DNA of 59,311 nt, filler included, from Jimgerdemannia flammicorona (Eukaryota), in the NCBI GenBank assembly GCA_003990765.1. It is 3 parts of 3 records of this genome, joined end to end, with 100 filler letters (N's around TTAATTAATTAA, not from the genome) between each part and the next. Parts side by side here need not be neighbours in the genome. Positions count along the whole stretch, not along the records: positions 19,810 to 39,517 come from RBNJ01001871.1; 2 more parts are not named here. The stretch is one strand, 5' to 3'. The notes below the pieces were generated by a model. The model had not been told where the DNA came from. It saw nothing but the letters and a program-made list of their open reading frames with translations, and searched no databases. Below are positions 19,296-55,890 of this stretch, piece by piece (position 1 is the first letter of the stretch; each line of letters begins with the position of its first letter). Both the position numbers and the translations under genes were made by a program.

Positions 19296-19299
19296 TCAG

Positions 19300-19330
<31 letters not shown>

Positions 19331-19332
19331 AT

Positions 19333-19709
19333 CGCGGAGGCATCTCTCTCTACTACAATTCACGTTACACACACTTTTCAACACACTTTCGAAGCATTTA
19401 TTGGAGAAAAGATACTAAGGCAATGTCATCCAGCAAGCAAGCCGATGCGCGTACTAGGTCAGGTGGACCTGGGGCCTTCGACTGGCAGACTGTTGGGAGA
19501 GGGTATGGTTTGGGGATGGGGTCCTTCGGTGGCTTGAGTGGGCAGGGTGGCTCAGGCAGTGGAAGTGGCACTGGTGGGGGGGCTGGAGGGAAGCAGGGGA
19601 GGAGCTTTGCGGACACGCTGGAGGGTGGGGGCTGACCATTGGGCACTCATGGTGGACCGGCGGGAGGAAAGGGGAAGCAGAAGGATAGAACCGCTGGGGG
19701 AGCTGGACC
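19333..19709 (+). mobile_element. 5' end of a related, CpG-rich (younger) LINE, cut by the contig end (copy 2)
   Basis: ORF1 start at 19423 (MSSSKQADARTRSGGPGAFDWQ) aligns with copy 1 (MESNEYTGVHTRLGRPRAFNWQ); SFAD motif shared. Confidence 0.8.
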
Positions 19710-19809
19710 NNNNNNNNNNNNNNNNNNNNNNNNNNNNNNNNNNNNNNNNNNNNTTAATTAATTAANNNNNNNNNNNNNNNNNNNNNNNNNNNNNNNNNNN
19801 NNNNNNNNN
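19710..19809. other. Assembly linker (N44-TTAATTAATTAA-N44)
   Basis: 100-nt spacer with stops in all six frames. Confidence 0.98.
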
Positions 19810-19826
19810 TTTTTTTTCGAGCATAG

Positions 19827-21089: not shown

Positions 21090-21699
21090 TTAGTTGCTAT
21101 TATTGTTTTCTCCGTTCCGTTCCGCTTTATTTCTCTGTTGTATTTTTATCTTCCAATAGTCGGTTTTCCTTATCTTTAATCCTTCATTAGTCAAATGTCC
21201 AATCGCTCTAAAAGGGCTATAAGGCGACTTCTGTCCACTGAATGCATTAGACTTGCACTACTCAATCTCCTGACTCTGTTCTTCAAAGGGTAACCCGCGA
21301 AGATACCTGACACCGTTACAGTAGTAAGATAATCAATGGGCTCCAAATCGAGTTCTGGGTTCGATCCTATTTGGAATATGAAAAAGCGGGGTTTGATATT
21401 CACGGTGTGTATGCTCTCCAACCAGCACCCTACGCCCAACATGACCCTTATAACGAGCAGCAAAAGATCACCCTGTTTAATGGAGGGGTCGCGAAATAGA
21501 ACAGTGCGCACATTCATGAAATCACAAGATCCTTCCTATATAGGGTTATCCCTGCATAAAATTGTTTATATCAATATGAAACTAATTTACATCAAGTCCA
21601 CTATGGAACTGAAAAACTATAGCACCATCAGAAGTATTCTGAAACAAGAGCAGGGTGAAAAAATTGCGCCATATGTTTTCAAAGTATCTGGCACCAGAG

Positions 21700-23064
21700 C
21701 TATTCAAGATTATTTGGATAAAGAGAGAATCACCATATCAATTCTAATAATTCTAATAAAAGCATAAATACCATTCATCAAGAAGATATTTCTGGACAAA
21801 GTCAGTAGGAATTAAATTCTAAGAAACGAGAATTATCAGAAATATTCCAAGAGCCTAGGAAAAAAAGAAAAACCTCTGAAGAGTAGAATATTATGGGTAT
21901 CATCATATATAGGGGTATTCTTATATATATTCTTTAATATACTCTGTGGAAGAAATTTTACAAACTATATGTAATATATATAATATATATATATACATAT
22001 ATATATATAGTAGATGACATAATTATGAATGAACATGAAAAAGCTCTCCATTTCCTAGAAGTAGGATATAGTTGTGGTTGCTTGACTAAGATACACAAAG
22101 AAGAATTTGCTGAATTGTGAGAAGACTTCCAAGTGCTAACAAAATCTGAACAAGACATTTTCTTAATGGTCTAACTCAGATTCATAGATGGAGGAGTGAT
22201 AAGTACTAGTCAGTACCTTAAAAACAAGACTCAGATCAATAAAAGAACTATCTACTACTGAAATTATAGTACTCTGATTTGCCAAAAAAAACTTACCTCA
22301 ATATACTTAGCATTGGCCACAATTATTTTGAAAACATTTGAAATCATTTGCCAAACAATGGTCTTTACTACAGGTCCATGGTAATGTAAAAAGAATGCCA
22401 TGGTGAAAAATCAAGATGGTTATCAATATTGATGTTACTACTATTGTCAAGAATTTTTTGCTAAATTATGTCAAAGTTCAAGGCTTACCTAGCTCAGTAA
22501 GATCTATTAATTGAGTCAACCAACCAATTATCTTTCTACCAGCAGAAATGAGCTACAAGTCTGTTTACCATAATTTTTTAGCTGACCTAAAGGATAATAG
22601 TAAATTGCATAACCTCAAGTATGATGCATTCTGCAAATTATGGTATCAGTTAACCCCATATATTCAAATCATGAGTCTGAGGACTGATTTATGTGATACT
22701 TATCAGTATTTGTAAAATGACTTATAGTTCAAAGCTTGCAAAGAGAAAGAGGCCCAAGATCTATTAAATAAATATAAAGAGCATTTGGCCAAAGCCTAAC
22801 TAGAGAGAAATTATTATAACAAAAATACCAAGTTGATAGAAGAACAAAGAAAACTTATCAATCAACATTTACTGATAAATGCTAAGATTCAATATTACAG
22901 CATTGATGCTATCACTCATTACAGTTATGATTGAGTACAAAATGTCCATATGCCTCATTCTAATTAACAGATTGGTAAGATATACTATCTTAGCACTTGT
23001 AAGGTACATTTGTTTGGTATTTAAGATGAAGTAGTCTATGAACAAATTAATTATGTTCTTGATG
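21700..23064 (+). mobile_element. Sola-type DDD transposase relic, 5' part (left boundary approximate)
   Basis: SCGC..ICQKTYLNILSI..VHGN, TDLCDT, THYSYD*VQN and KVHLFGI..QINYVLD; continues in frame after the LTR element. Confidence 0.75.
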
Positions 23065-25125
23065 TATAAGAGGGTTACTTTTTAGGATAACTGTTATGTA
23101 GTTCTGGAAAGGGTTTCTAGATATTCTGGATGTTCTGGAAGACTGTTTTCTTATGGTCAAGATCAATTTCGTATGGAGTATGTCCTCTACACTTATTGAT
23201 TTCAAGATCGGGTTGATGTCTTAACCAAAGTCCTTTTTTGGACTAGTTCTGGATGTTCAGGATTTTCCGTATTTCAGGAAGTTCAAGAAACTAAGACCAG
23301 CTTAGTTGAATTGGCATATCGCTGCAGACAATACCCAATTAGGAAATTTCGTGATAGGGTTAGGAGTAGGACCTAACAGGGAGCAGATTTACTTAAGAGT
23401 GGTTTGTGGGTTATGGAATAGGTTTATTTGCTATTCATGATATTGCTATACTAGGAGTATTTGTGTGAAGGGGTATTGTGGGGAAGTATTCAGGAATGTT
23501 CTGGTATGTTTTAGTCTGAGATTCTGAGGTCTGGGGGAGGGGGTATTTATACTAGTGAGGAGCTATCTGGGCTATGCTAGATATGGATATAGCACTAAGT
23601 GCTTTGCTGAGTCGGAATGCAGTCACATAGTACAAGTGTGATCTGACATATCAAGAGATCGTCTGACTGCTGAGTTAGTTTACAGTCACATCGTACAAGG
23701 CTAATCTAACTATACTATGACTGCTAGGCTATTTATGGGTTTAAGCACTGTCTGGGTAGTCTTCGATGATATCACCATTGATTGCATCATCTCTGATGAA
23801 GTAGTTGTCTAGGAATAATGATTCGCGGATTACTTCTCCTTATTCGCTGAGGTAATAGTACATTGGAACTTCATCTCCATCTTACAGGATAGCATTGTCT
23901 GTCTCGTAGGCTGGATAAGGTATTGGTGGGCGAAGGATGGGTGTATTATCTTCGCTTTCGTCAGATTCACTGTCTGTATACCTTCTATAGGTTACAGCAC
24001 TATGAGTTGCAGGATTGTAGTAAGCTGGCAGCTGTGGTTCATGTCGCTCGTACTCAGGTGGTGGAGTGATTGGTTCAATCTCGAGGGTTGTCTGGAGGTA
24101 CAGGTTGTGTTCTCCGGTCTCTTCATTGTAGTTGAAGTAGTCAGGGGTGAATGCGGGTTAGTATTCATGCCAGTGGTCATTGTCCCAATAAGTCTCGTAT
24201 ATAATTATGAACTGTTGTAAGTTCATTGGCAAGGTTGGCAGAGTGATCAGAGTTGGCAGAGATCCTTGGCTAGAGGTCATGTCGGCATCAGAGGGATCAT
24301 TTCTTCTGCTTCGTCTTCATCGAAGTGGATTATATCGTAGATGTCCTTCATGGCATATCCAACTTGGGGCATTTGCAGGATTTGATCATTGGGGTGTCAG
24401 AAGGTTCTGTCTGTAGTTTTGATGTACTCGAGGTACTTGTGATTGAGTTCTTGTATCATGTCATCGATTTGGCCATAGGACAGGGTAGCAACCATTTCAC
24501 TGGTAGTAACTCGGAGGCAGGGAATAATAGTGCTATACTCGTAGAAGAGTTCTCGATGTTTGTGGGTGATGAGCTTCTGGTGTTGAGACATCTGGATAAT
24601 GTCTGTATCATGGTAGTGTTTGACCATGTCTTCCAGGAGGCGGCCAATCTGGTAGTAGCTTGAGATTTGTCCAATTCGGTGGGCCTCGCTAAGCATGTTC
24701 AGGGTGTTCCATCGGGCTTCCACAAAGTAGAGGGGTGCCAGGCTATGGATATTCATGAGGGGCAGAGGGGGTGTAGCTTGGTTGACAATGGTATTCCAAA
24801 TGTCAGCACGGATACAGTTATAGATCTCGGTGGTCATGTTTGTGTATTTGGAAGTTGTGGTTGTTGTTTGTTTTGGTTCTCCGATTCGATGCATCTCGGT
24901 GCTCGGTATATATGCATTTGGTCCTGATTGGTAAGGTTCCATTTGTGTAGATCTTGTGTTCCGTGACTTCATATTGACTCATCTTTGTGCACTGTGACTT
25001 CGGTTTGACTCAGCTTTGTGATCAAGCAGGTGATTTCCAGATTTGTTCAGAGGTCATGTAAGATTTCAGTGGCTTGTTCAGAGGGTGACGTGTAATTTCA
25101 GTTGCTTGGAGGTTGTGCACTTACA
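23065..25125 (-). repeat. 3' LTR (2061 bp)
   Basis: TATAAG...CTTACA termini; colinear with 31643-33704 apart from one 1-bp indel near 24301. Confidence 0.96.
23740..24837 (-). pseudogene. LTR-embedded ORF, 3' LTR copy
   Basis: MTTEIYNCIRADIW... with premature stops and a 1-bp deletion relative to the 5' LTR copy. Confidence 0.7.
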
Positions 25126-25139
25126 ACTCTCCCCTTCTT
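25126..25139 (-). promoter_or_regulatory. Polypurine tract
   Basis: AAGAAGGGGAGAGT immediately before the 3' LTR. Confidence 0.9.
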
Positions 25140-25559
25140 AGCTTTCAACATCCTCGTCAGGGCCTTCTAATTTGTTCTAGTATTGTTACACCATTTGGGA
25201 GATCAAAAGTCTGGTAAGGTCCATTTTCTCAGAAAGTGGCATGCTCATAGTACAGTTGCCTAACGCATTGGATTCACACGTTAAAGGGTTGTGTGTTCAA
25301 TGTTATGTGCCAGAAGTGATTCTGACATCATTCACTGCTGGAGAATTTCCTCTAAGGAATCTTCTTAAATGTCTATACCTTGTTTCCCACCAGTGGTACA
25401 GGGAGAATAAGCTTGCTTTCAGTTTTGCTATTTTTCCAGGGATTCGGTATTCTTGTCTTGTTTTGCTGAGTTCTTGGTTTGGTTCGCAATAATTATAATG
25501 TTCAGGAGGATAATATATAGTATGTATGGATAGGTGTGGAATATTTGGTTCTAGTTGTT

Positions 25560-28500
25560 CAAGGAATCATATTCCTGAACTAGGTTGATAGCATTCTGGA
25601 GATTGGTCTTGGGTTTCCAGGTTGCATTGTGGATCGGGTAACCTTTCTATTTGACAAGGTACTCAGGGTGGCTCTTGTTGCCACATTTGTTGAGGATTTG
25701 TTCAACTTCATACTCTTCTTGGTCATTAATGATGACAGGTGCAGGTGGTTTCATGGTCCGATTTGGAAATAGCTCGTCATCATTGTCATTGTATCGCTTG
25801 GGACATTGAACATTAAAGACTGGGTGAATCTTAATGGTATCCAGTAGTGCCAGTTTATAGGAGGTCAGAGAGACTTGTGAAATGACTTCAAATGGTCCAA
25901 TGAACTTGCTGTTCAGCTTCGTAGATGGTCTGTGCTTGAGGTTGTCAACTCGGTATCCTCTGATGTCTAGTAGGACTTTTTCTCCAATATCAAAAGTTTC
26001 TTCTCAGCAGTGTTGGTTAACATACTGTGATTGTTGTTCTTGAGCTTGCAATAAATTCTCAATGGCAATTTGGCTTAAATTGCACATTCGGAGTAAGAAT
26101 TCTTCAACAGCTTCGACTGTGGAGGGTTCTTCAGTGGTTCGGATGAGTGTCAAAGAGGTGTTTGGATTTTGTCCAGTGTTGGTGAAGAATGGGGTCATTC
26201 CAAGAGAGGCTTGCTTGCTATTGTTATAGGCAAACTCGACTGCAGTGAGGTGTTCATGCTAGTCATCTTGTCTGTAGGAAACATAGTTCCTTAGCATTTG
26301 TTCCAGAGTTCAGTTCATTCTTTCAGTTTGGCCATCGGTTTCAGAGTAAAAGGCTGTGGATAGTGCAAGTTTTGTTCCAAGGTGTGCATGGAGGGCTTTC
26401 CAAAAGTGGCTGGTGAATTTCAGATCTCGGTCACTAACAATGATCTTAGGAAGACCATGATAGTGGAAGATGTTGTCAAACAAGAGTGTGGCTATGTCTG
26501 GTGCTGTTGCAGTAGTGGTAGTAGGTACAAAGTGGGCTTGTTTGCTGAGATAGTCTACAAAGACAACAATTGCATCTTTCCTGTTCTTGGTTTGGGGTAG
26601 TTGTACAATGAAGTCCATAGAGATTTGTTTCCAATTTGCAGATAGTACTGGAATAGGGTGGAGTAAGCTGGGTTTTGCTAGTGTTGAGGACTTGTTTCAT
26701 TGACAGGCATCACAGGAAGTGATATAGGTTTTGAGCTGATCTGCCATGCGGGGCCAATAGAAGTTTCAGAAGATAACTTCATAACATTTATTGAATCCTA
26801 AATGTCCAGCTATAGGGGCACCATGATATTCGAATAGGATAGTCCTTCGGAGGTCTCAGTTGTTTGGAACATACAATCTGTCCTTGTAGTAGATAGCATT
26901 GTCCTTGAGTTGGTATTGATTGTACCAGGTATGCTTGTCAGCATCATCATTGTTCAGAATTTCTCGGAGTACTTGAGCTTCCTTGTTGTCTGCACATGCT
27001 GTGATAATTTGTTCCATAATGGAGTTGGTAACCAAGGTCAGAGTTTGGATAACCTCTTCGATTGGTGGTCTGGAGATTGCATTGGCAACAATATATTCCT
27101 TGCCAGGGCAGTACTGGATTTCATAGTCAAAGTTGGTGAGGACTTTCATCCATCTGGCTTGCTTTCGAGAAAGGGTAGCCTGTGTCTTGATGTTGACTAA
27201 TGACTTGTGGTCAGCTAGTACAGTGAAGTGTGCTCCTTCTAGGTATGGTCACCATTTGATCAGAGTGTCTATGATGGCTAGCATTTCCTTCTTGTGAGTT
27301 GTGTAGTTGATTTCGGCATCATTGAACTTACGGGAGTGGTAGGCCACAGGGTGTCCTTCTTGCATAAGCACTGCTCCAAGAGCTAGGTCAGAGGCATCAG
27401 TAGTGACTTCATATGGTAGGGCAGGATTTACTGCTTGAAGTACTGGAGTGGTTATCAGGGCATCTTTCAGTACTTGAAAGGTGGTATCTTGTTCAGGTCC
27501 CCAAGTTACAAGATTGTTGAAGTCTTTCTCTTGTTTCATGGTCCAGGGTTGTTCTTGTTTCTTGCTGTGCATAGTTATTTGGGTGAGGGTGGTAGCAATT
27601 TTAGCAAAGTTGGCAACAAATCACCTGTAATAGTTTGCTAATCCCAGGAATAACTGGAGGTCTTTCAGCTTCTTGGGTCTGGGCCAATCCTTGATTGCAG
27701 AGATTTTGCTGGGGTCTACTTTGATTCCATTTGGGGTGACAATATATCCAAGAAATTGAATTTCTTTCAGGAGAAATTCACATTTGCTGAGTTTTGCAAA
27801 GAGTCAGTTTTTTCGGAGTTTCAGTAGTACTAGTTCAAGGTGTTCAAGATGTTCCTTCAGGGTTTTGCTGAAGACTAGGATGTTGTCAATATAGATAACA
27901 ACGAATTTGTCCAGGTATGGATGCAGAATGGTATTCATCAGTGTCTGGAAGATTGCTGGAGCATTAGTTAAGCCAAAGGGCATAACCAGGAACTTAAAGT
28001 ATTCATAGCAAGTTCAGAAAGCTGTCTTGTAGATGTCTTCTTCTTTCATGGCAATTTGCCAGTAACCATTTCATAGGTCAAAAGAGCTCATGAATTGTGG
28101 GTTGGTGAGCCTATTGAATATTTCATCAATCCTTGGTAGTGGGCAACAGTTCTTGATGGTCTGTTCATTGAGGTCGTGGTAGTCAATGCACATTCGCAGG
28201 TCTCCTCCTTTTTTGACAACAAAGAGGACTGGTGCACCATAGGGTGATACACTGGGTCTGATAAATCCTTGTTCTAGGAGTTCATCAATTTCTTTCTTGA
28301 GTGCATCAATTTCTCTCAGAGACATGTGGTAGATTGACTTGAAGGCTGGTTTGGTATCTGGGATAGTCTTGATTGTATAGTCTACTGCTTGTTTGGGAGG
28401 TAGGCCTTTCGGGAGCTTCTTTGGGAATATGTCTCGGAATTTCTGGAGTAGTGGTCTGACATGGCTGTCAACTTTGGAAAAATCTTCTTCAGAGTTCTCG

Positions 28501-29000
28501 GGTTCTCCTTTGGATGGTCGGATGGAGATGGCGAAGAGAGGGCATTTCTTGGCCAATTTCTTGAGTTGTAGCTTGTTGATATGGGTGATCTTTGGTCCAG
28601 GGTCACTAGAGTTGAGTGAGTCCTTTTCACCTTGTAGTTTGAAGTTGTGGCATCCTTTCTTGATGGTCAGAGAATGGTTTACCCAATCAATCATGGAGTT
28701 CTCTTGTTTTAACCATAGAGTCCCAAGAATGATTTCATTATCAGAAAGTGGTATGATTTGGAGGGTAACATGTACTCAGTAGTCACCAATTCGGAAGGGT
28801 AGATTGCGGACTTCTTTGCTAATAACATGTGAGGTTCCATCAGCTGTAGCAACTGCTTGAGTTTGCTGTACTAGGGAGGTGAAGACCTTGAGTCTGTTGG
28901 CTGTCTCTTCATTAATGAAGTTGCCTGAGGCACCACTGTCTATCATAATCTTGACAGGTGCTCCATTGACAAAAGCCTTAAGGGTGAGCAGTTTGTCTGA
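25560..29000 (-). pseudogene. pol: protease, RT, RNase H, integrase, chromodomain
   Basis: PR IDSGASGNF. RT SPYGAPVLFV..MCIDY..PLPRID..MPFGL..YIDN (decayed YIDD). RH TDASDLALGAVL. IN H..H..CDAC, MDF, SDRD, TDGQTERMN. Chromo EYEVEQIL..EYLVK*KGY. Confidence 0.93.
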
Positions 29001-29206
29001 TCCAATGCTGGTGATTTCAGTTGTAGGAGTCTTTCTTCTGTTGGTTCTTCTTTGAGCCAGTTCGTTGACACAAGAGAAGCAATCATCAATCATTCGGGAA
29101 GAGTACATTCCAATACCATGAGGGCATCAGCCACTTGGTACATATCCATCTTCTATCTTCTTGTAGAATTGTTCTTCTTTGCTCATGGTAGGTTGGGCTG
29201 GGGCCT

Positions 29207-29620
29207 TGTATGATGAACCAAATCCTTTGGATCCTTGGATGGTGGGCAGTAGTTCAGGGACTTCCTTGACTGTCAGGGTTGACTCGATTTTTTCGAATAG
29301 GATCTGGGCAATGCAGAAACCAATAGGGATCTTGAAGGGAGTCCAACTGTGGTTTCGAATGAGGACAATGATTTCGCCTGTGTAATCTTCGTTAATGACT
29401 CCTCCTTCTACTGAGAGTCCTTTCAGTGCTAGGCTGCTGGGACAGCATATTCTTCCAACATGTCCTTCAGGGATTTGGATACTGATTCCTATATAGACTT
29501 GTTTGACTTCTCAGTTGGAAACTGTAGCTTCTTTGGCTGCATACAGGTCATATCCAGCTGCTTTTTGACTTCCTTTGGTTGGGGCCTTAGCAGTTTGTCT
29601 TAACTTGACAAAGTCTAGTG
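29207..29620 (-). pseudogene. dut: Trimeric dUTPase domain between Gag NC and protease
   Basis: All five motifs: AAGYDL, GRICCPSSLA, GGVINEDYTGEI, CIAQI and QGSKGFGSS. One TGA. Not shown in the ORF track. Confidence 0.92.
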
Positions 29621-29689
29621 TTCTGGTGGTCAGGTTGTTGAGGTGGTGCAGAGAGGTGACAGTTGCTCGGGTTGCTGTTCGGGGTTTTC

Positions 29690-30750
29690 AGTTAGGGCAG
29701 GCACTGGCTATGTGTCCTATCTTTCGGCAATAGAAGCATGCTCTGCTTCTTCGAAGTTCATTTCTTTCACCTTCAGTAAGTTTCTTGAAGGTACTTGGCT
29801 GGGTGGGTTTATGATTTCTGGGTATCCAAGAGGTGGATGTGGGGGGAGCTCGAGATGCTTTATGCTTGGGTTCTTCTTTCTTGGTCCAAGTCTTTTCCTT
29901 GTTGTTGAATTGTCTGGGGCAGAATTGGTCCAGCTGTTAGGATTCGCTTGACCATGGTCTTGATTCTTGCCAGGCACCATTGTTGGTAATCACAACCAAC
30001 TGGGCAGCCTTGTTCTCAGATTTTTCTAGTAAGCCATTCAGGCAGAGCATCAAATAAGTGGTCTGCTCTTGTACCATTTCGTGTTTCATCATTGGCAATG
30101 TATCCTAGGCCAACAGTGTTCAGGAGTGACTCGAGTTTTGTACAGAAGGTTTCGAATTCTTCTTTGCCATGTATATTGAATTTGAGGTTGCAGAGTTTTA
30201 CTCGAGATTCAGCAATCATGGTTTCACTATGATATTGAGCAATCATGAGTTGTTTGAGTCCAGGGGCTGCAGGATGGGCTCCATATCCTGGGGCATTGTT
30301 TGCTGCATTCTGGGCAACTACTGCAGGTCGGGTATCCCATGTGAGGGGTTTTTCAGAAAGGGTTCACCACCATTCTTCAGCAGGTCCTCAGAAGAATGTA
30401 ACAACTTGGCGGACATAGGCTGTAGTTGTAGCAAAGAGTTGTTCCAGGGTGTGGTCTTGATTGTTTGTCAGAACGTGGTCAGCAACTCGCTCATTGGTCC
30501 ATTGATTGGCCTCGAAGTTGGTGTCAACTACACTAATAAAGCTTTGGACTTCTTGTGCAGTACCATTGAAGGTAGGTAGGCTGAGATTTTTGGTAGATTG
30601 GGTCTGTTCAGCTAAGGCAGTAATGGTTGCTGCCATTATAGCTACTTGAGCTGTGAGATCAAGAATCTGTTGGTTTGCCATGTTGATTGCTGGAGGTGGT
30701 TGGACTGCTGGTAGTGGTATTACTGGTACTACTTGAGGTACTGGCACAGA
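29690..30750 (-). pseudogene. gag with CCHC knuckle
   Basis: LPTFNGTAQEVQSFI capsid start; CFYCRKIGHIASAC zinc knuckle at ~29695-29740. Confidence 0.88.
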
Positions 30751-31627
30751 GTGTGATGGGGTTCTTTGGGTCTGTATAAGTTGCTAGAGTAGTAGTTGTG
30801 GGTCTGGAGTGAGAGCTTGATAGATAGCTGTTTGTTGCTGTATAGGTGTATTCTGTCCTGATGGATGTGTGTCTCCTTCCGTGGTGTATCCAGGATTGAA
30901 TTCAGTGAGATACTCCTCCTCTTCTTCAGTTTGGTCCCCGTGTAATTGGGTTTGCTCTATATCAAAGTAGACAGAATCAGTTGTATATCTGATTTCAGAT
31001 GGACTTAATTCAAAGTCAAGTTTAGATTTAGTATTGGTTTCAGATTCAGGTAGGGCTGTAGCAGGGCCTGCTTCAGGTTCAGGGTCAGGTAGTTGATGAA
31101 GGGTTTCTCTTGCTTCTTCTTTAAGGATATGGCAGGCCTTGCTGTTCTGGAATTGGTAGTATAAGGCAGTCTTGGTCCTGGTACGGTGAAAGTCAGTAGA
31201 GTTGAGCCACTTGGCTACAGAGGCTTGGGCTTCGTGAGGAACTAAGGCTAGAAAGACTGCTGCTGGTTGTCCTAGGTCGCTCGGATTTGTGGATCTGACA
31301 AAACTCTTATTGAGAAAAGTAAAGAAGGCTTCAATAAGACCTTCTTTGTCTTAACTTGCTGGGTGTAGTGCAAGGAGTTCGGTGAATAGGGTTTCGCCTA
31401 TTTGCTGGTTTAACCAGAGTACTTCTTTTTTTAAATGAAGTTTATCCTACTTGTTGCAGGTATGGAGGTCAAATTGTCCTTGTGCGTCAGGTTCAATTCT
31501 CTCCAGATTGTCAGATGGTTCGGATAAATTCCAGTTCAGAGGTTGGGCTTTATACCAACTTGTAGGAATTCGCAGAGGGGTTTGTAGCAGGGTAAGGAAG
31601 CGTCTTGAAGCAGAATTGGACTGTAAA

Positions 31628-31639
31628 CCAATGCTACCA
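31628..31639 (-). promoter_or_regulatory. Primer-binding site (tRNA-iMet-like)
   Basis: TGGTAGCATTGG 3 nt after the 5' LTR; TGGTAGC matches initiator-Met tRNA 3' ends. Confidence 0.7.
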
Positions 31640-31642
31640 AGT

Positions 31643-33704
31643 TGTAAGAGGGTTACTTTTTAGGGTAACTGTTATATAGTTCTGGAAAGGGTTTCTGAAT
31701 ATTCTGGATGTTCTGGAAGACTGTTTTCTTATGGTCAAGATCAATTTCGTATGGAGTACGTCCTCTACACTTATTGATTTCAAGATCGGGTTGACATCTC
31801 AACCAAAGTCCTTTTTTGGACTAGTTCTGGATGTTCAGGATTTTCCGTATTTCAGGAAGTTCAAGAAACTAAGACTAGCTTAGTTGAATTGGCGTATCGC
31901 TGCAGACAATACCCAATTAGGAAATTTCATGATGGGGTTAGGAGTAAGACCTAATAGGGAGCGAATTTACTTAAGAGTGGTTTGTGGGTTATGGAATAGG
32001 TTTATTTGCTATTCATGATATTGCTATACTAGGAGTATTTGTGTGAAGGGGTATTGTGGGGAAGTATTCAGGAATGTTCTGGTGTGTTTTAGTCTGAGAT
32101 TCTGAGGTCTGGGGGAGGGAGTATTTATACTAGTGAGGGGCTATCTGGGCTATGCTAGATATGGATATAGCACTAAGTGCTTTGCTGAGTCGGAATGCAG
32201 TCACATAGTACAAGTGTGATCTGATATGTCAAGAGATCATCTGACTGCTGAGTCAGTTTACAGTCATATCGTACAAGGCTAATCTAACTATACTATGACT
32301 GCTAGACTATTTATGGGTTTAAGCACTGTCTGGGTAGTCTTTGTTGACATCACTATCGATTGCATCATCTCTGATGAAGTAGTCATCTAGGAATAATAGT
32401 TCGCAGATTACTTCTCCTTGTTCGCTGAGGTAATAGTACATTGGAACTTCATCTCTGTCCCACAGGATAGCATCGTCTGTCTCGTAGGCTGGATAAGGTG
32501 TTGGTGGGTGAAGGATGGATGTATTGTCTTTGCTTTTGTTGGATTCACTGTCTGTATACCTTCTATAGGTTACAGCACTATGAGTTGTAGGATTGTAGTA
32601 AGCTGGCAGCTGTGGTTCATGTCACTCATACTCAGGTGGTAGAGTGGTTGGTTCAATCTCAAGGGTTGTCTGGAGGTACAGGTTGTGTTCTTCGGTCTCT
32701 TCATTGTAGTTGAAGTAGTTGGGGGTGAATGCGGGTTAGTATTCGTGCTAGTGGTCATTGTCCCAATAAGTCTCATATGTAATTATGAACTGTTGTAAGT
32801 TCATTGGCAAGGTTGGCGGAGTGATCAGAGTTGGCAGAGATCCTTGGCTAGAGGTCATGTCGGCATCAGAGGGATCATTGTCTTCTGCTTCATCTTTATT
32901 GAAATGGATTATATCATAGATGTTCTTCATGGCATATCCAACTTGGGGCATTTGCAGGATTTGATCATTGGGGTGTGGGAAGGTTCTGTCTGTGGTTTCG
33001 ATGTACTTGAGGTACTTGTGATTGAGTTCTTGTATCATGTCATCGATTTGGCCATAGGACAGGGTAGCAATTATTTCGCTGGTAGTAACTCGGAGGCGGG
33101 AAATAATAGTGCTGTACTCGTAGAAGAGTTCTCGATGTTTGTGGGCAATGAGCTTCTGGTGTTGAGACATCTGGGTAATATCTATATCATGGTGGTGTTT
33201 GACCATGTCTTCCAGGAGGTGGCTGATCTGGTAGTAGCTTGATATTTGTCCAATTCAGTAGACCTCGCTAAGCATGTTCAGGGCATTCCATTGGGCTTCC
33301 ACGAAGTAGAGGGGTGCCAGGCTATAGATATTCATGAGGGGCAGAGGGGGTGTGGCTTGGTTGACAATGGCATTCCAAATGTCAGCGCGGATACAGTTAT
33401 AGATCTCAGTGGTCATGTTTGTGTATTTGGAAGTTGTGGTTGTTGTTTGTTTTGGTTCTCTGATTCGACACATCTCGGTGCTTGGTATATATGCATTTGG
33501 TCCTGATTGGTAAGGTTCCGTTTGTGTAGATCTTGTGTTCCGTGACTTTGTATTGACTCATCTTTGTGTACTGTGACTTTGGTTTGACTCAGCTTTGTGA
33601 TCAAGCAGGTGATTTCCAGATTTGTTCAGAGGTTATGTGAGATTTCAGTGGCTTGTTCAGAGGGTGACGTGTAATTTCGGTGGCTTGGAGGTTGTGCGCT
33701 TATA
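31643..33704 (-). repeat. 5' LTR (2062 bp)
   Basis: TGTAAG...CTTATA termini, followed by TSD TGATG. Confidence 0.96.
32319..33416 (-). pseudogene. LTR-embedded ORF, 5' LTR copy (366 codons including stop, no indels)
   Basis: ATG in CACAAAC-ATG context with TATATA ~70 nt upstream. Copy-specific stops are sense codons in the other LTR. One TAA (codon 227) is shared. Confidence 0.72.
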
Positions 33705-34398
33705 TGATGAAAATAAACTTCTTAGAAAGGGTTCAAATGGTACACTTAGCTTAGTCTTCAACAGAATCAAGCAATTGAATAAAGGCAAGAAGCATTTGAA
33801 AATTATCTACAATAATGTAGGTAGACAAAACAAAAACAATACTACCCTTTGATTTTACTTATATTTGATAATAAGTGGTTATTATGAAAGTATTGAACTA
33901 AACTTCATGGTTCTAGGTCATACTAAATTCAAGTGTGATAGTAGTTCCAGATTAATCAAAAGGCTTTATTGCAAAACAACAGTGAATTATATAGATCATA
34001 TCATTGATGTGGTAAAAAGGTTTAGCATCACTGAATTAAATAAAGCTTGATATTATAATAGTGATGAAGGTTTTCAATATTATAACATCATAAGTGGCCT
34101 AGAAACTTATTTTAAAAAATTGCCTAGCTTGTAAAAGTTTCAGTACTTTCTTTTTACCAGCACTAATCTTGAGAAAATCAAAACCCAAGCAGTCATAAAT
34201 GGTTCTTTCCAGGAATTCAAGTTATTGAAGACTAGTAAATCCACAACCCCTCAAGCTATAGAAAAATTCAAAGCCTTGTCATTTCCAGTGCTTAAGCCTC
34301 TTCCTATGGAATTGAAATGCTAAGAATACCTTTATCACAATATTTGCCTATTTGTTAGAGACCAATTTAAAGATATTACTTGTCTCAAGCTAATATAG
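33705..34398 (+). mobile_element. Sola-type transposase relic, 3' part
   Basis: Rejoined frame reads VLD|ENKLLRKGSN. YNNVGRQNKN (decayed DNxxGQNKN) and FMVLGHTKFKCD (GHxxxxxD) are Sola-like catalytic motifs. Confidence 0.8.
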
Positions 34399-36289
34399 TT
34401 TTTATTTTACTTTTTTCTATTACTGATAAACTCTTTAACCAACATATAAGCAGTTGTTCTCATAATCATAATTAAAACTACTCCTAATCCAATTCAAGGA
34501 ATTTGATTAGGTTTTTGCTTATCAGTTTGGTTAAGTTCTAATCTAACTAATTTGGCTCTTTTAGTTTGTAATTCTTGTTCTTGTTCAGCAGTTCAATTAG
34601 TTTGTTTTTCTAAATTTTTAATTTGAATTCATACTTTTGCAATTTTATTTCTTCTTTTCATTTCCTTTTCAGAAACCAAGAAAGAAAGATGGGTACCTTC
34701 TTTCTTATATTTTAAATAATCTATATCATCTTTTCAAATCATATAATAAGTTTCAGGATCACAAAGTTTTTCAGCAAGACATTCATTTTCCATGGTACTA
34801 TCAAATTGGTTGTCTTTTTTAATTGGTCTATAATGTCTTCAATATTTTTGCAATTTAGTTTTAGGAAACACATTAATTATGAATTCAGATTCACTATAAT
34901 TATTGATATAAGAAGGAATATCACCTTCCCATTTTTCCACTTTTAATGCTTTTACTAGTTCTTTTTCTAATTTGTATCCAATCTGAAAATCATGAATATC
35001 CATGGTACTTTCAAATTTTTATATTGTTTCTTATAATACTTCACCTAGTTGATCTCAGGTTTTTTGATCAATACTGTTGATATTGTTAGGTAAGTATTTT
35101 TTAGTAGAAATAGTTGTATATCCAAAACTTACTTCATTACATAACTTAGCAACTATCTTATACTTTTCAATAATAATATTATCTATATTATCTGAATTGG
35201 GTTCTAAGTTTTCTTCAGTCACCTTTATTTGTTTGGGTATAGCCTTTCTCATAAGCTCTTTTGGATCCAGTGACTTTGTAATCTTTTTTATATTTAGAAA
35301 CTATTCATATGTAAAAATGGGGTGAGTTCTGACCACCCAATTTTCCTACTGTGAAACTAACACAATATCCCAGTAGTTTTATTATATCTATTTTTTTAAT
35401 ACTATCCTTTAAGACTGGTAAAATATCTGCTCATTCTTGCCTAGTTATTTCTCATAAATTATTAGTGTGATGTTTGGTACATAATACTATATGAGCTTTA
35501 GTTTGTGCTCTCATATTTAAACTAGAAAAAACAGTACCATTAAAGTCTGGCAATCAATATTTATATATCTTTTTTTCATATACTTTAATGTTATTGTAAA
35601 TATGACAAACTATTTCCCCCTTTTCTATACTTTTTGAGCAAATATAACTTAGAGTATTATTATCTTTTCAAGAAAAGTATTCATCTTACTTGCCTCTTTG
35701 AATTTCTTTTTGACAATTCTGGCATTGAGAGTATTTATATCTATGACTGTCTTCATAAGTGGTAATATCTCAATTGAGCATGATTTTACATTGAGAGCAA
35801 AAAGTGGTTATTCTATCTTATCTTCCACTATCTTTATCTTTTATACTTCTGACTCTAAAAGATCAATCAAAATTTTCTTTATTTTTAGCCTTAATTAATA
35901 TTTCTCTAAAGATTTTCTTTTTACTTCTTTCTCATTCAGTAGTTTTTTCATCTAATTCTTACTGAATGAGATATTATAAACAATCTCAATAATGAAATTC
36001 AATATGTTTTTGATCTTCTTCATCTCACCAATCAACTGTTAGTCCTTCTTTTATTTGATTACAATTAAAACATTCTTTGCTAGCCATCATACTTATTGTT
36101 TATAAGTAGGATTTTAGCAAAAAATAATAATAATTAAAGCAGAGAGTGTGTGAGATAAAAATAATGAAGAAATAAATTGTGGGTTATATTTTACTGTAAT
36201 TATCATAGAAATGTGAGAGTGAAAATAAAAATTTTAAGCCTAATATCCAAATGACATCAAATGTTCACTTTGTCTAGTTTTGTTGCAGT

Positions 36290-37735
36290 ATACTCCATAT
36301 CATCTGTAATGGTACCCACCTTCCACACTACACCATATACCAAGAGCTCTGCCACTTTCTGCTATATTCTATCTATTAGAGCTTTTAATGAAAGAACATA
36401 GAGAATAGGAGACAATAGGTCTCCCTGAGGAACTCCTCTCCCCAAGAAGAAAGCCAAACTTCAGTAACTATTACACATCAGTGCTGCCCTACTACCCTCT
36501 AACAGATTCAATATAGATGCTTGAAATCATGAGAGAATACCAATTCTATCCAGCATCTTGCCTAGCCACACTCACCAAACATGGTCATAGGTCTTCTCCT
36601 GGTCTAAAAAGACCAGTCTCCCATCCAATCCACAAGCCCTTGCTCCTTCAATAATACCATAAACCCAGACAGTCCCATCTCTGATAAGTCTGCCTCCAAC
36701 AAAGCCCCACTGTTCCTTCCCCAGCACCTGTTGGGCAACCTTCTGTAGTCTTGCAACAATCATCTTGGTCACCATCTTCCTGTCCATATCCAGAAGCATG
36801 ATCTGCCTCTAGTTCTTCCAATTCTCCCTCCTCCCCTTGTCTTTATACAACAAGGTCACCAGCCCTAAGACCTGCCCACCAACTCACTTTCCATTCAGAA
36901 GAATATGGTCACAGAGAGCAGCCATCTCTCTCAATACTCTAGGGACCTTTGCTATTTTCTTTTAGAAGTCCCAAGGCAATCCATCTTCTTCTAGTACAGT
37001 TCCAATCTTGGTTGCTACAAGGACTCTCTGTATCTCCTCCTCTTGGACTGGTTTAATCAAGTCACCAAGTCTCTCCACTTATAGCAGATTCCACTCTTTC
37101 AATATATCACCAATTGCCTCTGCATCTGCTCCCCCTTCCTCCTCACTCCAAAGGCTCCTCCATCTCTCCTTCAGTACTCCCAAGATCTATTGCATGCTAT
37201 GTACCATTTCTCCCTCTGTATTCAAGACCCCATTCCAATGATGTTGTACCCTCTTAGCTTGAAGAAGCCTAGACAAGTACCTAGTAGGCCACTCACCTTT
37301 CTCAAGCCCCTACCACCATAGTCTGGCAGCCATTCCTTGCAAATGAATTTCCTCCTCTTCTCTCAATATCTGTTACAACTCCACTATCTCTAATTTTGCC
37401 CTCTCTAACCTCCAATCCTCTACCTCTTCAGAAGAAAGCAAATCAGCCCATTCTATCTGCAATCTAATCAGCCTATTAGAAGCATACCTTATATACTTTC
37501 TCTTCTACCTCCCAGCCTCCTTACCAGCTCCTCTCCAATACCTCCTTCAATCTCATCTAATAGTTACCCACAGATGAATCCTCATATATCTAGTGAGTGA
37601 TCTTCTTCTGGATTTCCTCCACCCATGGATCTCACAACCCCTTCTCAGCCAATAGAGAGGAGTTAAGGCACCAATGTCTGTGTCCATCTCCACTCCTCCC
37701 AAACTGTCTCTACCTCAATAGCTCCCAGTGGAATT
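36290..37735 (-). mobile_element. Internal ORF2 fragment of the LINE family (copy 3)
   Basis: Near-colinear with ~15040-16490 (MLLDMDRK..LDQEKTYD..GVPQGD). Confidence 0.9.
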
Positions 37736-37739
37736 TAGT

Positions 37740-38685
37740 GATCACTATAACTCAATCAGAGAACCACCACTATTAAGAACCTCTATATAAGCTTTAATTA
37801 GAAGAGTCAGACTCCTTACATCTTTATCAAAACACTGTCCCCTACCAGCATCACTAGTTTATCAAGCACCTCCACCATCTCTATCCTAAGCATTATCAAG
37901 AAACTCTACTTCAGAACCAGACTCAGACAGTAAAAACAAACCAGAGATAAGCTATCTTCAGAAATTCCATAATATAGATAGTGAAGATGTTGAGGAATTC
38001 TATAGAGAAATTGAAGTACAAGCAGTAGCCAAGTAGTGAGATGTCTAGAGAAAGCTCAGAATTATAGAATCACTTCTGGAAGATCCTGCTCTATAGAAGT
38101 ACAACCAAGCAAGATAAATTGGAGGAGAAATTCATATAGCAGAATAAGCCAACAATCTTTAAGCAAATGGAGATCATGCAGACAGATATAATATTTATAA
38201 GACCTGGCTCTATACTTAGTTCAATAGTCTTAAGCATTAATAAGAAGCATAAGAAGCTTTGACCTAAATGAGTCAAGCTGCCAATAAAATTCCAAAAAGC
38301 TTCTACTATTAAATTTAAGCTCAGATGATCAAAGTTAACATATAACCTACAGTCCAACTAGCCCTGGTCTCAACCACCTTCCTCAATGGAATATTCTCAG
38401 AGCTTCAAAGATAAGTTATTAGGATAGACTATTGAAGTATTGACTAACAAGTTGTTGGAGTACAAGAATGCTAGGAAGCAGACTATAGATTACTCCAGCA
38501 GACTCAAAAACATCAAAAATCAGCTCAAGTTAAAACCTCAAGGACTTATAGAATAACTCCAGAATAAGAGAATGTCTACTTAAGAGTCCAGTTGGCCAAC
38601 TATGAGATCAGACCCCTACCCTCAATCTTAACTCAGTATAGGTAATAACAGCAATATCTACTAAGAACTCAAGAAGGTCCTAACC
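37740..38685 (+). mobile_element. Possible decayed gag relic
   Basis: LQKFHNIDSEDVEEFYREIE resembles a gag capsid N-terminus (P.F.G..EDxxE[FW]); many stops. Confidence 0.4.
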
Positions 38686-38689
38686 AAAC

Positions 38690-39517
38690 AAATGAAAGAT
38701 CTGGTAGATGGAGTATACCAGATAGGCCTGCATTAATGAGGCAATGAGGGAGAGATGCAGTGAGGTCTGGCTATGTGGTAATGGGACAGATTGCTTCTGG
38801 GGAGTGTTCTGATTGCTGAGTTCAATATTGGTGATGGAGTGGAATATTAGCAAGAACTTGGCTAGGATCTTTGGCCTAGTGATTGGTAGGGAGTGGAGAT
38901 TGGAGAGGAGTGAGACTAGACAGGAGTCTGATCATGGAGTACTGAGATGTGGCAGTAGCTTCCTCCCAAGTTCTGGGTGGTGTGGTGGTAGATACTGTAG
39001 AGAAATTTTATGCTGAATTTCTGTACAGGGTATCTGGTAGATGGTGGCCAATTAGATTATAAAAAGTGTTATAATGTAAGATAAGTGGGAGGATTTGTGC
39101 AGACTCCAGAACATTGGTTAGAAGAGTGTGAGGTTCTGGGGGACTTTTGGGTAGTGGTAGGGAGCTAGCTGAGTATGGTGAGGAGACCAGATAGAGAGAG
39201 AGGTTGCTGGGAGGATTTGAAATCTCAGTTAGTGGGTGGAGTAGGTAATAGTTGGCTCACTGTAGGGTGGGTTTTAGTCATATAGGTAGGGCTGGCTGAT
39301 CATTAGCTCTTTGTTTTCAAAGAGGGGCACCAGATAGATATATAGAAGAAGTTATTGAGATGGGAGGGTTTGATGGGAGATTTGCAGACTAGGTGGTGGG
39401 TTGGTTGAGGTCTCTAGGATAGGCAACATTACTACCTGGTAGAAGGGATCTGTGCACAGAGTGGTGGATGGGTGGAGATGGTATTTGACAAAGTAGTCTT
39501 TCATTAAGAGAGAGTGG
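38690..39517 (+). mobile_element. 3' ORF2 fragment of the LINE family (copy 4), cut by the contig end
   Basis: Reverse-complement match to ~13540-14350. Confidence 0.88.
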
Positions 39518-39617
39518 NNNNNNNNNNNNNNNNNNNNNNNNNNNNNNNNNNNNNNNNNNNNTTAATTAATTAANNNNNNNNNNNNNNNNNNNNNNNNNNN
39601 NNNNNNNNNNNNNNNNN
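39518..39617. other. Assembly linker (N44-TTAATTAATTAA-N44)
   Basis: Identical to the first linker. Confidence 0.98.
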
Positions 39618-39928
39618 CTTCTTTCGTATGTACATTTTATCTTGTGCAAAGAGAATTTAGTCGATGAAGCCAGTAGTCCATCAATATTTATAAAATCACC
39701 CTTCGTATGCGCCGAGTTTACGTGGGTCTCACTACACCTCTCTCTCCTGTCCGACTCGAGCTTCGGCGCTGATGGCAGCGGTGGTGCCACCTGTGGTGGA
39801 GGTGGCAGTGGTGGCGGCTGTGGTGGCGGCTGTGGTGGAGGCGGCTGTGGTGGAGTGGTGGTGGCGCCGTTATACAAGGACAGATTTTCTGGGTTACATA
39901 TCGCAAATATCAGAGTTGTGTTTCGCAC
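39618..39928 (-). CDS. Possible partial proline-rich protein exon, cut by the contig start
   Basis: CpG-rich open frame with a PPQPPPPQPPP tract; no recognisable domain. Confidence 0.3.
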
Positions 39929-40039
39929 AACAATATACTAAAAAAGTCGTGAATCCTGGTTAATACTAATTTGTGTCACTATGATCGACCGCAAATAGGG
40001 CCGAGAAACGCGAGACTTGACAGTTTGCATTCGTCATTC

Positions 40040-40041
<2 letters not shown>

Positions 40042-40080
<39 letters not shown>

Positions 40081-43000
40081 GTCACTCAGACTTCCATTTA
40101 TTACCACTCAGTCTAAAATAATGATACATATATACCTACAGCCCCTCAGCCAATGCCCCTTGAAACCCTCTCTCTTCTCTCCATCTCTCTCTGCCAAAGG
40201 ACAACTCAATTCCCTACCACTGAAACCCTCCTGTCACTCTTCTTGCAAATACAGTTTACTAAATTCTGATAGCCCCCCCCCACCTGATCCCCACCCTCTC
40301 CACCAACCATTCCCAATATACTACCCTAGCCCCAACCTCAACCTGCTGGTCCTCCTTAAAGATATAAAGCCAATGACTGGCCAGCCCTACCCAAATTGCC
40401 AGAGTCCAACCAAAAGTCAGCCATTCATCCCCAACCCTGCCCACTAACCTTCACCAGAGATCCCTCCATCTCTCTCTCTCTCCCCCCACCAGGGGCTGCA
40501 ATCCCAGTCTACTCATAATACTATGCCAAAACTCTTCCAAAATCTCACACTCCTCTAGCCAATGTTTAGGTATTTGTACCACTTCCCCCTTCTGTCCAAT
40601 GTCCATACATTCCTTACACTCAAATATACTGTCTGCCACCAAGTGTCCTGACTGATAATTCAGCATCACATTCCACCTTAGAAATCTCCACTATACCACT
40701 CAGAACTTGGGGGGAAGCCACTATATCACCTGCTTGCTCTAAGGCCAAATATCATTCTAGTCCTACTCCTTATCAATTCCAACTCTTTACTATACTTCAG
40801 GCCACATGTCCCCCCTGAGCCCTCACATACATTCCATTCCATCACCAAGCTGAAAATTCTCCATCAATGTACCTCCCAGCAGTAGCTAGTCCCATCTCCA
40901 CATCCATGGTCCCCAGTCCTCCTCTCTCTCATCACCCCTCCACCTAAGTCCAATTCTCCTTGCACTATCTACTACTCCCTACCTACTGCATCCTCCTGCT
41001 CCCATCTATGGCCGCCATTGCAACCAAGTCACCAGTCACTCTACAAGGGAAATACCAGACTTTCTATAATCTCTACATAAGTGACACCCACTCCCAGCCC
41101 CTCAACTTGCTCACCCTCTTCAGCCACCATGCTCACAGGCAATAAAGATGCTTAGTAAAGTCCACCAATCCCAGCCCACCCCTGTCAACAGGCTGAGTGA
41201 GAACCTCTCAGCCTATCTGACTTTGCCACCTAGTCCAAATCCATGATCTTGCCATCTTCAGAAGTTGCCTGACCACCCATACTAAGAAGTCTAGATGATA
41301 TCCTACATATCACAGCTTAGGCAGCCAATACACATTCAGCACCATCACTCTTTCTGTCAAGGATATATGCCAACCACCCCACCTCAAGAGAACATTTTCC
41401 CATACAAGTAGCTGCTGTTCCCACCATACATGAGGCAGAAGGGACCCATATACTGAAAAGTATATCCCCAAGTACTGGACCAGTTCTCCTGCTGGAACCA
41501 CTGTTCCAATCATATTGCTGCCAACTATTCTGCCACCTAGCACCAGAGTCTCACATTTGTACTAGTTGAGTTGAGTACCAGAGCCCCTCTCATACCATTC
41601 CACCATCCTCTGTAATTCCTCCACATTCTCTAAAGAACTCAGTCTAACTACTATGTTATCTGCAAAAGCCCCAACCTTCTAGTTAATTCCCAAAATATCC
41701 AAACCTCCAAATCAATACTAGATTCTGTCCAACAGGGGCTCTAAGGAAAGGGCATAAAGGATGGATGACAAAGGATCCCCTTGTGGCACCCTATGATCTA
41801 GCAGAAATGTTACACCCCTATGCCCATTCATTACTAGTACTGCTTGGCTGTTCTCCAATAGACCAATTAATGACCTCCTGAACTCTGGGGGAACTCCCAC
41901 ACATTTCAGCACTCCCTCCAGCCAGACCCTCTTCACTCCATCATATGCCTTCTCCTGATCCAGGAATATTAGCCATCCATCAACCCCAGCTGCCTGAGTC
42001 CCTTCAATCATCCCATGGACCCAGGCAGTACCATCTTGGATCAACCAACCACCAACAAAACCCCTCTGCTCCTCTCCTAGAACCTGCTGAGCAATCCCCT
42101 GCAACCTAGTTACCAAGATCTTAGTCACTAGCTTTCAGTCCATGTCAAGAAGTATGATTGGTCACTAGTTCTTCCAATCTTCTCTTTTACTCTTATCCTT
42201 ATAGAGTAAGGAGACCAGCCCTAGGTGCTGGCCTCTAATCCAAGTTCCAGATCTAAGTACCTTATTATACATTGTCATCATTTCTTCCAGAACTACTACC
42301 ACTCCAGCCATCTTCTTCTAAAAATCCCAGGGCAGCCCATCCTTATCTAGAGCTGTCCCCTTACTTGTTGAAGCCAAGACCTTGCACACTTCTTCTCCTT
42401 GCACCAGATCTCCCAGCATCTCCAGGCCCAGTGCTGGGTTTGGATGCCAATCCTCCAACTGCCACTCAATATTTAGAGCATTCTCACCCCCCTCTTCTTC
42501 ACTCTATAAGTTTCTCTAGTGAGTCCTCAGCAGGTCCAAAATCATAGAAGTCCCTGCCACCATCTCTCCATCTTTATCCAAGATACCATCCCACCACTGT
42601 TTAGTTCTCTGCACTTAGAGCAATCACAATAGAAACTGAGTGGGCCTCTCCCTCTCCTCCAATCCCTATCACTGCAACCTCACCACCATTCCCTTTAGCT
42701 TAACCTTCTCCTCCATTCATAGTACTTCTATTAGCTCATCTACTTTCTTTTATATCTGCAGAATTCATCAATCGACCACCTCTCTATCCTCTAATGACCC
42801 CACCTATCTCCCCAGGAGTGCCACCAATCTCTGTAAAGCCCATTGCACTTGCTGCTACTACTGAGCACTCTTTCCTTTCCTGGCCTCCCTCCAGTATCTC
42901 TGAGCACTCAATTTCAGCCTCTGCCAGTGATCTCCAATCACCAGTCTCTGCTTCTACCACCTACCAATCCTCTCAATAGCTTCTACCTTCCAGTCTGTCC

Positions 43001-45785: not shown

Positions 45786-45789
45786 AAAG

Positions 45790-55756: not shown

Positions 55757-55890
55757 CGCCAGATTAGACCTGTATGTTGTAATTTATATCGTTATACGTC
55801 ATTATGTGGCTTGTGTGCTGCGTCATCAATAGCAATGCCCACAGTCAGAACACCACCTCCATCGTCCCTTCACAAATCCCAGAATCGGTA

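Follow-up and report, generated by a model that had tools for sequence, protein, structure and literature searches.

A disrupted reading frame within both long terminal repeats of a chromovirus

The window, i.e., the whole stretch of 59,311 nucleotides, filler included, in which three parts of the Jimgerdemannia flammicorona genome (GenBank assembly GCA_003990765.1) are joined, carries on its minus strand a full-length chromovirus, and each of the two long terminal repeats (LTRs) of this retrotransposon encloses the broken remains of an open reading frame (ORF) of 365 codons (Table 1). The frame occupies positions 289-1386 of the 2062 LTR positions and lies wholly inside both LTRs. It is interpreted, with a probability of roughly 0.6, as a real accessory gene at the level of the element family, with its place inside the LTR; in the present insertion, it is dead.

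A frame of about 365 codons inside both 2-kb LTRs of a chromovirus had been put forward in a first-pass annotation of the sequence, and this claim was confirmed by the LTR pair, the read-out of the frame, and comparison with shuffled sequences. Indeed, each copy contains four in-frame internal stops, compared with 17.6 ± 3.9 in composition-matched shuffles, of which none out of 2000 had four or fewer. The TAA at codon 227 is the sole stop common to both copies, and wherever one copy has a private stop, its counterpart has a sense codon, as had been claimed. The stop/sense pairs between the copies are TGA/CGA (twice), TAG/TGG (twice), TAA/CAA (once), and TGA/CCA (once). The pairs listed in the annotation were roughly right, as TAA/CAA and TGA/CCA were retrieved, whereas TAA/TGG was not found and TAG/TGG occurred instead. 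Similarly, the single shared TAA at codon 227 held, but a deletion of one base near codon 178 of the 3' LTR copy had been missed. The TATA-like box and the A-rich start context described earlier correspond to CATATATACC, about 75 nt before the ATG, and to ACAAACATGACC, respectively. On the sense strand, the frame is A/C-rich (A 367, C 313, T 239, and G 176). The remaining five frames contain 13-30 stops, mostly common to both copies, with the exception of antisense frame 0 (5-6 stops); few stops in antisense frame 0 are common opposite a coding frame.

Evidence for a protein-coding gene

A first line of evidence consists of the three-base periodicity of the frame. Its codon usage correlates with that of the gag-pol of the element (r = 0.70), compared with 0.35 and 0.42 for the shifted frames. 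Also, the share of G at the first, second, and third codon positions (0.25, 0.10, and 0.14) resembles that of pol (0.24, 0.13, and 0.15), whereas no such pattern is seen in the LTR part beyond the end of the frame (0.13 at each of the three positions).

A second line of evidence is a homologous protein of 247 amino acids (P0002), uninterrupted and encoded on a contig of 998 nt, which is identical to codons 115-364 at 154 of 250 positions (62%) and has the same C-terminal end. The alignment with the frame contains two in-frame gaps of two residues each, and P0002 carries W, Q, and Q at the stop codons 223, 227, and 265, respectively. The Q at codon 227 is the residue that the first-pass annotation had predicted (CAA instead of TAA). 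Among the 90 mismatches, 44 (0.489) are positive in the BLOSUM62 matrix. In a null model, in which the window's own frame was mutated at random down to the amino-acid identity of P0002, this fraction was 0.285-0.326. At transition/transversion ratios of 1, 4, and 20, the number of simulations out of 3000 that attained the observed value was 0, 0, and 1, respectively. Because the observed fraction exceeds the simulated null, the replacements in P0002 are more conservative than unconstrained mutation yields. In addition, a frame mutated randomly to the divergence of P0002 stays open in just 0.4-3.2% of the runs.

Thirdly, a shorter homolog of 128 amino acids (P0003) is identical at 110 of 128 positions, starts at the same ATG, contains no stop up to codon 128, and reads codon 54 as a sense residue. 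This protein may stem from the same organism and documents another copy of the frame, not conservation between species.

Fourthly, variation within the LTR family was considered. Contigs matching the LTR at a likeness of at least 80% were retrieved from three sequencing runs (432, 3592, and 427 contigs), and 40 of the 419 variant places were chosen for read support, 30 of which are located inside the frame. At 24 of these 30 places, the window's two LTRs carry the same base, which is not that of other copies; because of this agreement, the 24 variants predate the insertion. They are distributed over the first, second, and third codon positions as 7, 2, and 15, with 14 synonymous and 10 nonsynonymous changes. 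The excess at third positions (15 of 24) is significant against the neutral share of 0.33 (binomial p = 0.009) and against the LTR-to-LTR differences (Fisher p = 0.03). The six variants private to one LTR are spread evenly (2, 2, and 2). As the sample is small and was selected by read support, this test provides supporting evidence only. Together, the periodicity, P0002, P0003, and the third-position excess back the earlier view of a real LTR-borne coding sequence rather than a chance frame.

Searches for relatives

P0002 and P0003 were found in a word-indexed search of 5.8 billion protein clusters, in which 1 of 324 candidates of near length (P0002) and 1 of 24 shorter candidates (P0003) were kept. 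No longer or fused form of the protein was retrieved among the 648 candidates in the longer length class. An exhaustive search of 1.84 billion representatives returned P0002 alone, its profile covering the C-terminal 252 positions, with the N-terminal 114 residues outside. At the DNA level, no relative was confirmed in metagenome_contigs (P0002 and alignment A2), viral_contigs (P0002, A2, a piece of pol, and A5), or genome_contigs (A5). Within the window, the frame displays no similarity to the element's own gag-pol (best E-value 0.23-0.34) nor to the rest of the sequence.

Concerning sequencing runs, run X10 (35 million letters) contains a contig of 9601 nt with a depth of 369, positions 152-364 of which are 81% identical to codons 233-303 (window 32508-32720). 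This contig may stem from another organism with a related element that is either very abundant or highly expressed and of approximately LTR-plus-internal length. In run X23, which bears the same species label as run X2, none of 12.4 million reads matched.

Decay of the two copies

The two LTRs differ in 119 of 2062 aligned columns, comprising 114 transitions, four transversions, and one single-base gap. When grouped by the context of the C-bearing state, these differences affect 37 of 74 CpG sites, 58 of 321 CpA sites, 14 of 202 CpC sites, and 5 of 279 CpT sites. Classical repeat-induced point mutation was considered as the cause of the transitions, but the CpG/CpA context fits deamination of methylated CpG better. 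The CpA count includes CA/TG doublets of the LTR alignment, which suggest CpGs that were mutated in both copies.

Within the frame, 25 of the LTR-to-LTR differences are synonymous and 52 are not (32% compared with a neutral expectation of 33% for transitions), with 34, 17, and 26 differences on the first, second, and third codon positions, respectively. Both copies in the window are pseudogenes that have drifted without constraint since the insertion. Such neutral drift between the LTRs of one insertion is expected anywhere and is uninformative on the gene in active elements. The gag-pol frame is broken by many stops, and the element is dead; the insertion is old, and both gag-pol and the two LTR gene copies decayed neutrally by CpG/CpA transitions. 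The region of the frame is more diverged (78 of 1098 positions) than the other LTR sequence (41 of 964).

Structure and classification of the element

The LTR pair was detected by self-blastn as one long direct repeat (23067-25123 and 31645-33702; 94.3% identity over 2058 nt), the ends of which were refined by reading the junctions, and the LTRs were aligned with MAFFT. The LTR termini are TGTAAG..CTTACA, each copy with one transition (TG(T/A)..(C/T)A), and the 5-bp sequence CATCA on both flanks of the element represents the target-site duplication. Together with the primer-binding-site-like motif and the polypurine tract, this duplication fixes the LTR ends. Six contigs of run X2 extend from 33702, the LTR start, into sequence that matches the polypurine-tract junction of the window. 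Because these contigs cross the same junction, the LTR boundary is confirmed by independent copies. The primer-binding-site-like motif TGGTAGCA is presumably complementary to the 3' end of a tRNA.

A single internal frame of 6.5 kb encodes, in this order, a gag zinc knuckle (zf-CCHC, E-value 0.0027), a dUTPase, an aspartyl protease, a reverse transcriptase (RVT_1, 1.3e-31), an RNase H (RT_RNaseH, 3e-31), an integrase (Integrase_H2C2, 4e-17), and a chromodomain. The chromodomain (Chromo, PF00385; residues 1978-2026; 4.4e-10, above its cut-off) is located C-terminal to the integrase. The dUTPase (PF00692; 1.9e-30) follows the gag zinc knuckle and precedes the protease; it maps to 29100-29500 on the minus strand and to residues 685-811 of the polyprotein. 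All defining features were found, and the element is a dUTPase-bearing chromovirus.

Table 1. Coordinates in the window of the chromovirus, its terminal repeats, and the LTR frame.
Feature	Position	Strand	Remarks
5' LTR	31643..33704	-	2062 nt; self-blastn, MAFFT alignment, and junctions
3' LTR	23065..25125	-	2061 nt, one base less than the 5' LTR; self-blastn, alignment, and junctions
Target-site duplication CATCA, left copy in element orientation	33705..33709	-	Junction read-out
Target-site duplication CATCA, right copy	23060..23064	-	Junction read-out
LTR frame, 5' LTR copy	32319..33416	-	365 codons plus TAA; stops at codons 54 (TGA), 223 (TAG), 227 (TAA), and 265 (TGA)
LTR frame, 3' LTR copy	23741..24837	-	Stops at codons 146, 227, 319, and 333; one-base deletion
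TATA-like box CATATATACC	33484..33493	-	Upstream of the ATG; identical in both LTRs; putative promoter
Strong TATAAATA box	32122..32129	-	About 190 nt downstream of the frame stop; conserved in both LTRs; likely promoter of genomic RNA
AATAAA	32001..32006	-	Candidate polyadenylation signal, about 120 nt past TATAAATA; conserved in both LTRs
Primer-binding-site-like motif TGGTAGCA	31632..31639	-	3 nt past the 5' LTR
Polypurine tract AAGAAGGGGAGAG(T)	25126..25139	-	Abuts the 3' LTR, directly upstream
Internal region	25126..31642	-	gag (CCHC), dUTPase, protease, reverse transcriptase, RNase H, integrase, and chromodomain in one frame with many stops; Pfam

Other sequences in the window

Large blocks that are C-rich on the plus strand occur at 13500-21900 and 36000-46500 (GC skew -0.25 to -0.51; GC content 0.40-0.51). 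They share stretches of 73-75% identity, namely 15037-16459 with 36295-37706, and 13547-14311, inverted, with 38740-39504. Long stop-free runs are numerous in these blocks, but none of the plus-strand frames, read through stops, gave a match in Pfam; the blocks probably constitute an unclassified repeat family. Paired runs of 44 N bases are located at 19710-19809 and 39518-39617, one pair per C-rich block. The repeat-rich core is flanked by pieces of host-like ORFs, encoding a GTPase (MMR_HSR1/Septin/AIG1-like; 4284-4709, plus strand; 1.8e-08), a GNAT acetyltransferase (55088-55783, minus strand; 2.6e-08), and a protein-kinase fragment (57266-58141, plus strand; 1.7e-07). No Rfam match was found in the window.

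Character of the predicted protein

The C-terminal half of the predicted protein has an isoelectric point of 4.05, with 40 D and E among 191 residues, 19 P, and 18 Y, so that its acidic and P/Y-rich nature, noticed in the first-pass annotation, is confirmed by composition. Residues 312-351 have a net charge of -11 and include 16 W, F, Y, L, I, or M, a pattern that is kept in P0002. Acidic activation or adaptor segments typically have such an acidic, aromatic-rich composition, which is a lead to a possible function. The N-terminal half had been described as helical. AlphaFold models indeed placed helices at residues 2-141, but with low confidence, the predicted local distance difference test (pLDDT) score being 42.0 for this half and 30.6 for the whole protein. 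K and R account for 19 of 361 residues, and no DNA-binding or promoter-targeting domain was found in the Pfam search.

No transmembrane-like segment was present, as the Kyte-Doolittle mean over 19 residues did not exceed 0.96 for the frame in the window, 0.97 for P0002, and 0.57 for P0003; the usual threshold for transmembrane hydropathy is about 1.6. No Pfam family matched the frame at an E-value up to 1, and a sequence search with the C-terminal 252 profile positions retrieved no PDB chain at an E-value up to 5. In a protein atlas, no usable match was found for P0002, the stored model of which has a pLDDT of 0.39. Atlas matches for P0003 (scores of 0.90-0.93, with 131-155 shared features) concerned unrelated families and were treated as chance. 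The C-terminal half is probably disordered, and the product would be a soluble, non-membrane protein with a helical N-terminal half and an acidic, Tyr/Pro-rich C-terminal half.

Position in the LTR and proposed expression

The order of the strong TATAAATA box and AATAAA probably represents, as judged from sequence, the ordinary layout of an LTR, with unique 3' (U3), repeated (R), and unique 5' (U5) regions. Since the frame is located upstream of the strong TATAAATA box, it probably lies in U3. The summed contig depth in run X10 is 9-18 just upstream of TATAAATA and 3400-7400 just downstream, although that X10 represents RNA is a guess, and a better-conserved R-U5 part would give the same picture. 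In two DNA-like runs, the LTR part downstream of TATAAATA (31773-32076) is two to three times deeper than the rest. In runs X1 and X2, contigs have roughly the first 47 nt of the LTR in common and, from 33655 (LTR position of about 50), diverge into another sequence. This divergence, combined with the step in depth, suggests LTR subfamilies with exchangeable U3 bodies. Inspection by eye of the first 200 nt of the LTR (33550-33640, positions of about 65-155) revealed the direct repeats CTCTGAACAA (twice) and CAAAGTCAC(A/G)G(T/A)ACACAA(A)GAT (twice). Short direct duplications of this sort occur in enhancer regions.

In the proposed mechanism, the frame would be a family-specific gene for an accessory protein, carried inside the LTR of a chromovirus lineage and most likely located in U3. 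As reverse transcription copies U3 to both ends, each insertion would receive two copies of the gene, and each solo LTR would keep one. Expression could take place within one LTR, through a unit consisting of the TATA-like box, an A/C-rich leader of about 40 nt without an earlier ATG, the frame of 1098 nt, and the AATAAA of the LTR about 310 nt past the stop. The predicted mRNA would be about 1.5 kb in length, and the genomic RNA would likewise carry the frame at its 3' end. Concerning its origin, the ORF may once have been located between pol and the 3' LTR; a shift of plus-strand priming to an upstream polypurine tract would then have made it part of the LTR. The weakest step concerns function. 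The protein may serve the family in trans, its most plausible role being that of an acidic activator or adaptor that would work on the LTR promoter or on host factors.

Alternative explanations

A first alternative, which appears unlikely, is that the frame is a captured host gene or gene fragment, with P0002 as the host gene or its ortholog, and that the LTR copy has drifted from its capture onwards without ever being of use to the element. LTR retrotransposons are known to take up foreign ORFs, as bdelloid elements do according to the available part of one study (PMC5408684). Furthermore, P0002 is known as a protein alone, and the absence of similarity between the frame and gag-pol would be consistent with a foreign origin. 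However, a host gene would be expected in annotated proteomes, whereas just the proteins of 247 and 128 amino acids were found among approximately 15 billion. A codon usage like that of gag-pol and the preference of the variants among LTR copies for third positions argue against drift of a captured sequence as well, and the high-depth contig of 9601 nt in run X10 fits a repeated element.

A second alternative places the same gene in the leader of the genomic RNA. In that case, the genomic RNA would begin at the upstream TATA-like box and carry the frame as its first cistron within a very long R, and TATAAATA would drive a second mRNA for gag-pol. Some plant Ty3/gypsy elements carry an extra ORF upstream of gag, and both the conservation of the upstream TATA-like box in the two LTRs and the lack of an earlier ATG in the leader are compatible with this arrangement. 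It is nevertheless improbable, as an R of about 1.47 kb would be unusually long and the strongest TATA consensus occurs downstream of the frame, about 120 nt before AATAAA, in keeping with the usual U3/R/U5 layout. The rise in X10 depth by a factor of more than 300 just downstream of TATAAATA points in the same direction, with the nature of that run being guessed.

The third alternative, a meaningless frame on a T-poor, A/C-rich strand that has few stops, is close to refuted, since the composition of the sense strand and the stop-poor antisense frame 0 would allow for it but the shuffles, the many stops of the other sense frames, the periodicity that matches pol and is missing in the rest of the LTR, and the open homolog with its conservative replacements contradict it.

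Several points weigh against the interpretation as an accessory gene of the family. Only two relatives were retrieved among approximately 15 billion predicted proteins, both known as proteins alone, which may or may not be located in LTRs. As P0002 begins at codon 115, conservation of the N-terminal half rests on one close copy, P0003. Selection was judged from protein comparison and from variants, in the latter case from 24 places other than codon 227. Further, both copies are broken, and the stop shared at codon 227 suggests that the parent may have transposed with a truncated gene, in which case the C-terminal half may be dispensable in cis; alternatively, this stop may have arisen by a parallel CpA transition in both LTRs. 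Finally, the placement in U3, the LTR-internal promoter, the mRNA, and the role as an activator have the status of inferences, the structure models are of very low confidence, and no family, fold, or motif backs any function.

Comparison with known systems

The sag gene of mouse mammary tumour virus is located in U3 of the LTR, while lentiviral nef and spumaviral bel/bet overlap the 3' LTR. Like these genes, the frame is located in the LTR downstream of pol; it is hence doubled in the provirus, and the genomic RNA contains it at its 3' end. In position, it resembles a retroviral U3 gene, although, as far as its sequence tells, it is a member of none of those families. It is situated entirely within the LTR, about 290 nt from the LTR start, and it lacks a match in Pfam or PDB within the limits mentioned above. 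Sag is a membrane protein, whereas the frame is without a membrane anchor. Moreover, in contrast with retroviruses, the element that carries it is a Ty3/gypsy chromovirus without env.

Among LTR retrotransposons, lineage-specific ORFs of unassigned function beside gag-pol include env-like genes or ORF3, pre-gag ORFs of some plant elements, captured ORFs of bdelloids, and the additional ORFs of fungal elements, and the frame is similar to them in this respect. It differs from env-like genes and ORF3 in that the LTR start, to which the polypurine tract is directly adjacent, precedes the ATG by 288 nt and the frame is doubled in both LTRs, and from env-like ORFs in that its hydropathy profile shows no signal peptide or transmembrane-like segment. 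All these extra ORFs are internal by description, unlike the LTR frame, although for the fungal ones, labelled 'add. ORF' in the part of Novikova et al. (2010; PMC2864245) that is available, a location in the LTR is possible. According to the same part of that source, dUTPase occurs at varying positions in fungal chromodomain Ty3/gypsy elements. PosPlaTy3 of Postia placenta, the Phanerochaete chrysosporium elements, and Tmt1 of Tuber resemble the present element as chromodomain Ty3/gypsy elements with dUTPase in the polyprotein; their descriptions in that part mention no LTR-borne ORF, unlike the element in the window.

For crapaud of Podospora, the available part of the description (PMC10787394) reports that variation between subfamilies is modular and confined to the U3-side (5') half of the LTR, the rest being shared. 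The LTR family of the window is similar in that it shares its first 47 nt or so, diverges at 33655, and is deeper downstream of TATAAATA. In contrast, crapaud is described there with two ORFs, gag and pol, and none in the LTR. A full-text literature search on ORFs within LTRs of retrotransposons yielded nothing but retroviral examples or the phrase in an unrelated sense, and no LTR-internal retrotransposon frame is described in the available parts of PMC6875170, PMC4139406, PMC6673714, and PMC11302176.

Significance

LTR-internal accessory genes are a distinctive trait of certain complex retroviruses, few in number, while the extra ORFs of retrotransposons have been described in the internal region. 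With no recognizable family or fold, the encoded protein is a candidate for a new retroelement factor. The U3 region might even be a complete cassette, with a promoter, a gene of 365 codons, and a poly(A) signal, the acidic trans factor of which would boost LTR transcription or blunt host defence, and solo LTRs would then represent a distributed gene family serving active elements; this extended scenario is rather speculative. One option within it is that the factor, alongside the dUTPase, counters the deamination- and uracil-linked pressure that is seen as CpG/CpA transitions.

As the polypurine tract sets the 5' end of the LTR, a shift of this tract alone could turn an internal ORF into LTR cargo. 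The masking of LTRs may explain why just two fragments of the protein were found among approximately 15 billion predictions. If the interpretation as an accessory gene is true, solo LTRs, which are usually masked in annotation, can have protein-coding potential, and U3 can hold cargo in retrotransposons too, in this case in a chromovirus that lacks env.

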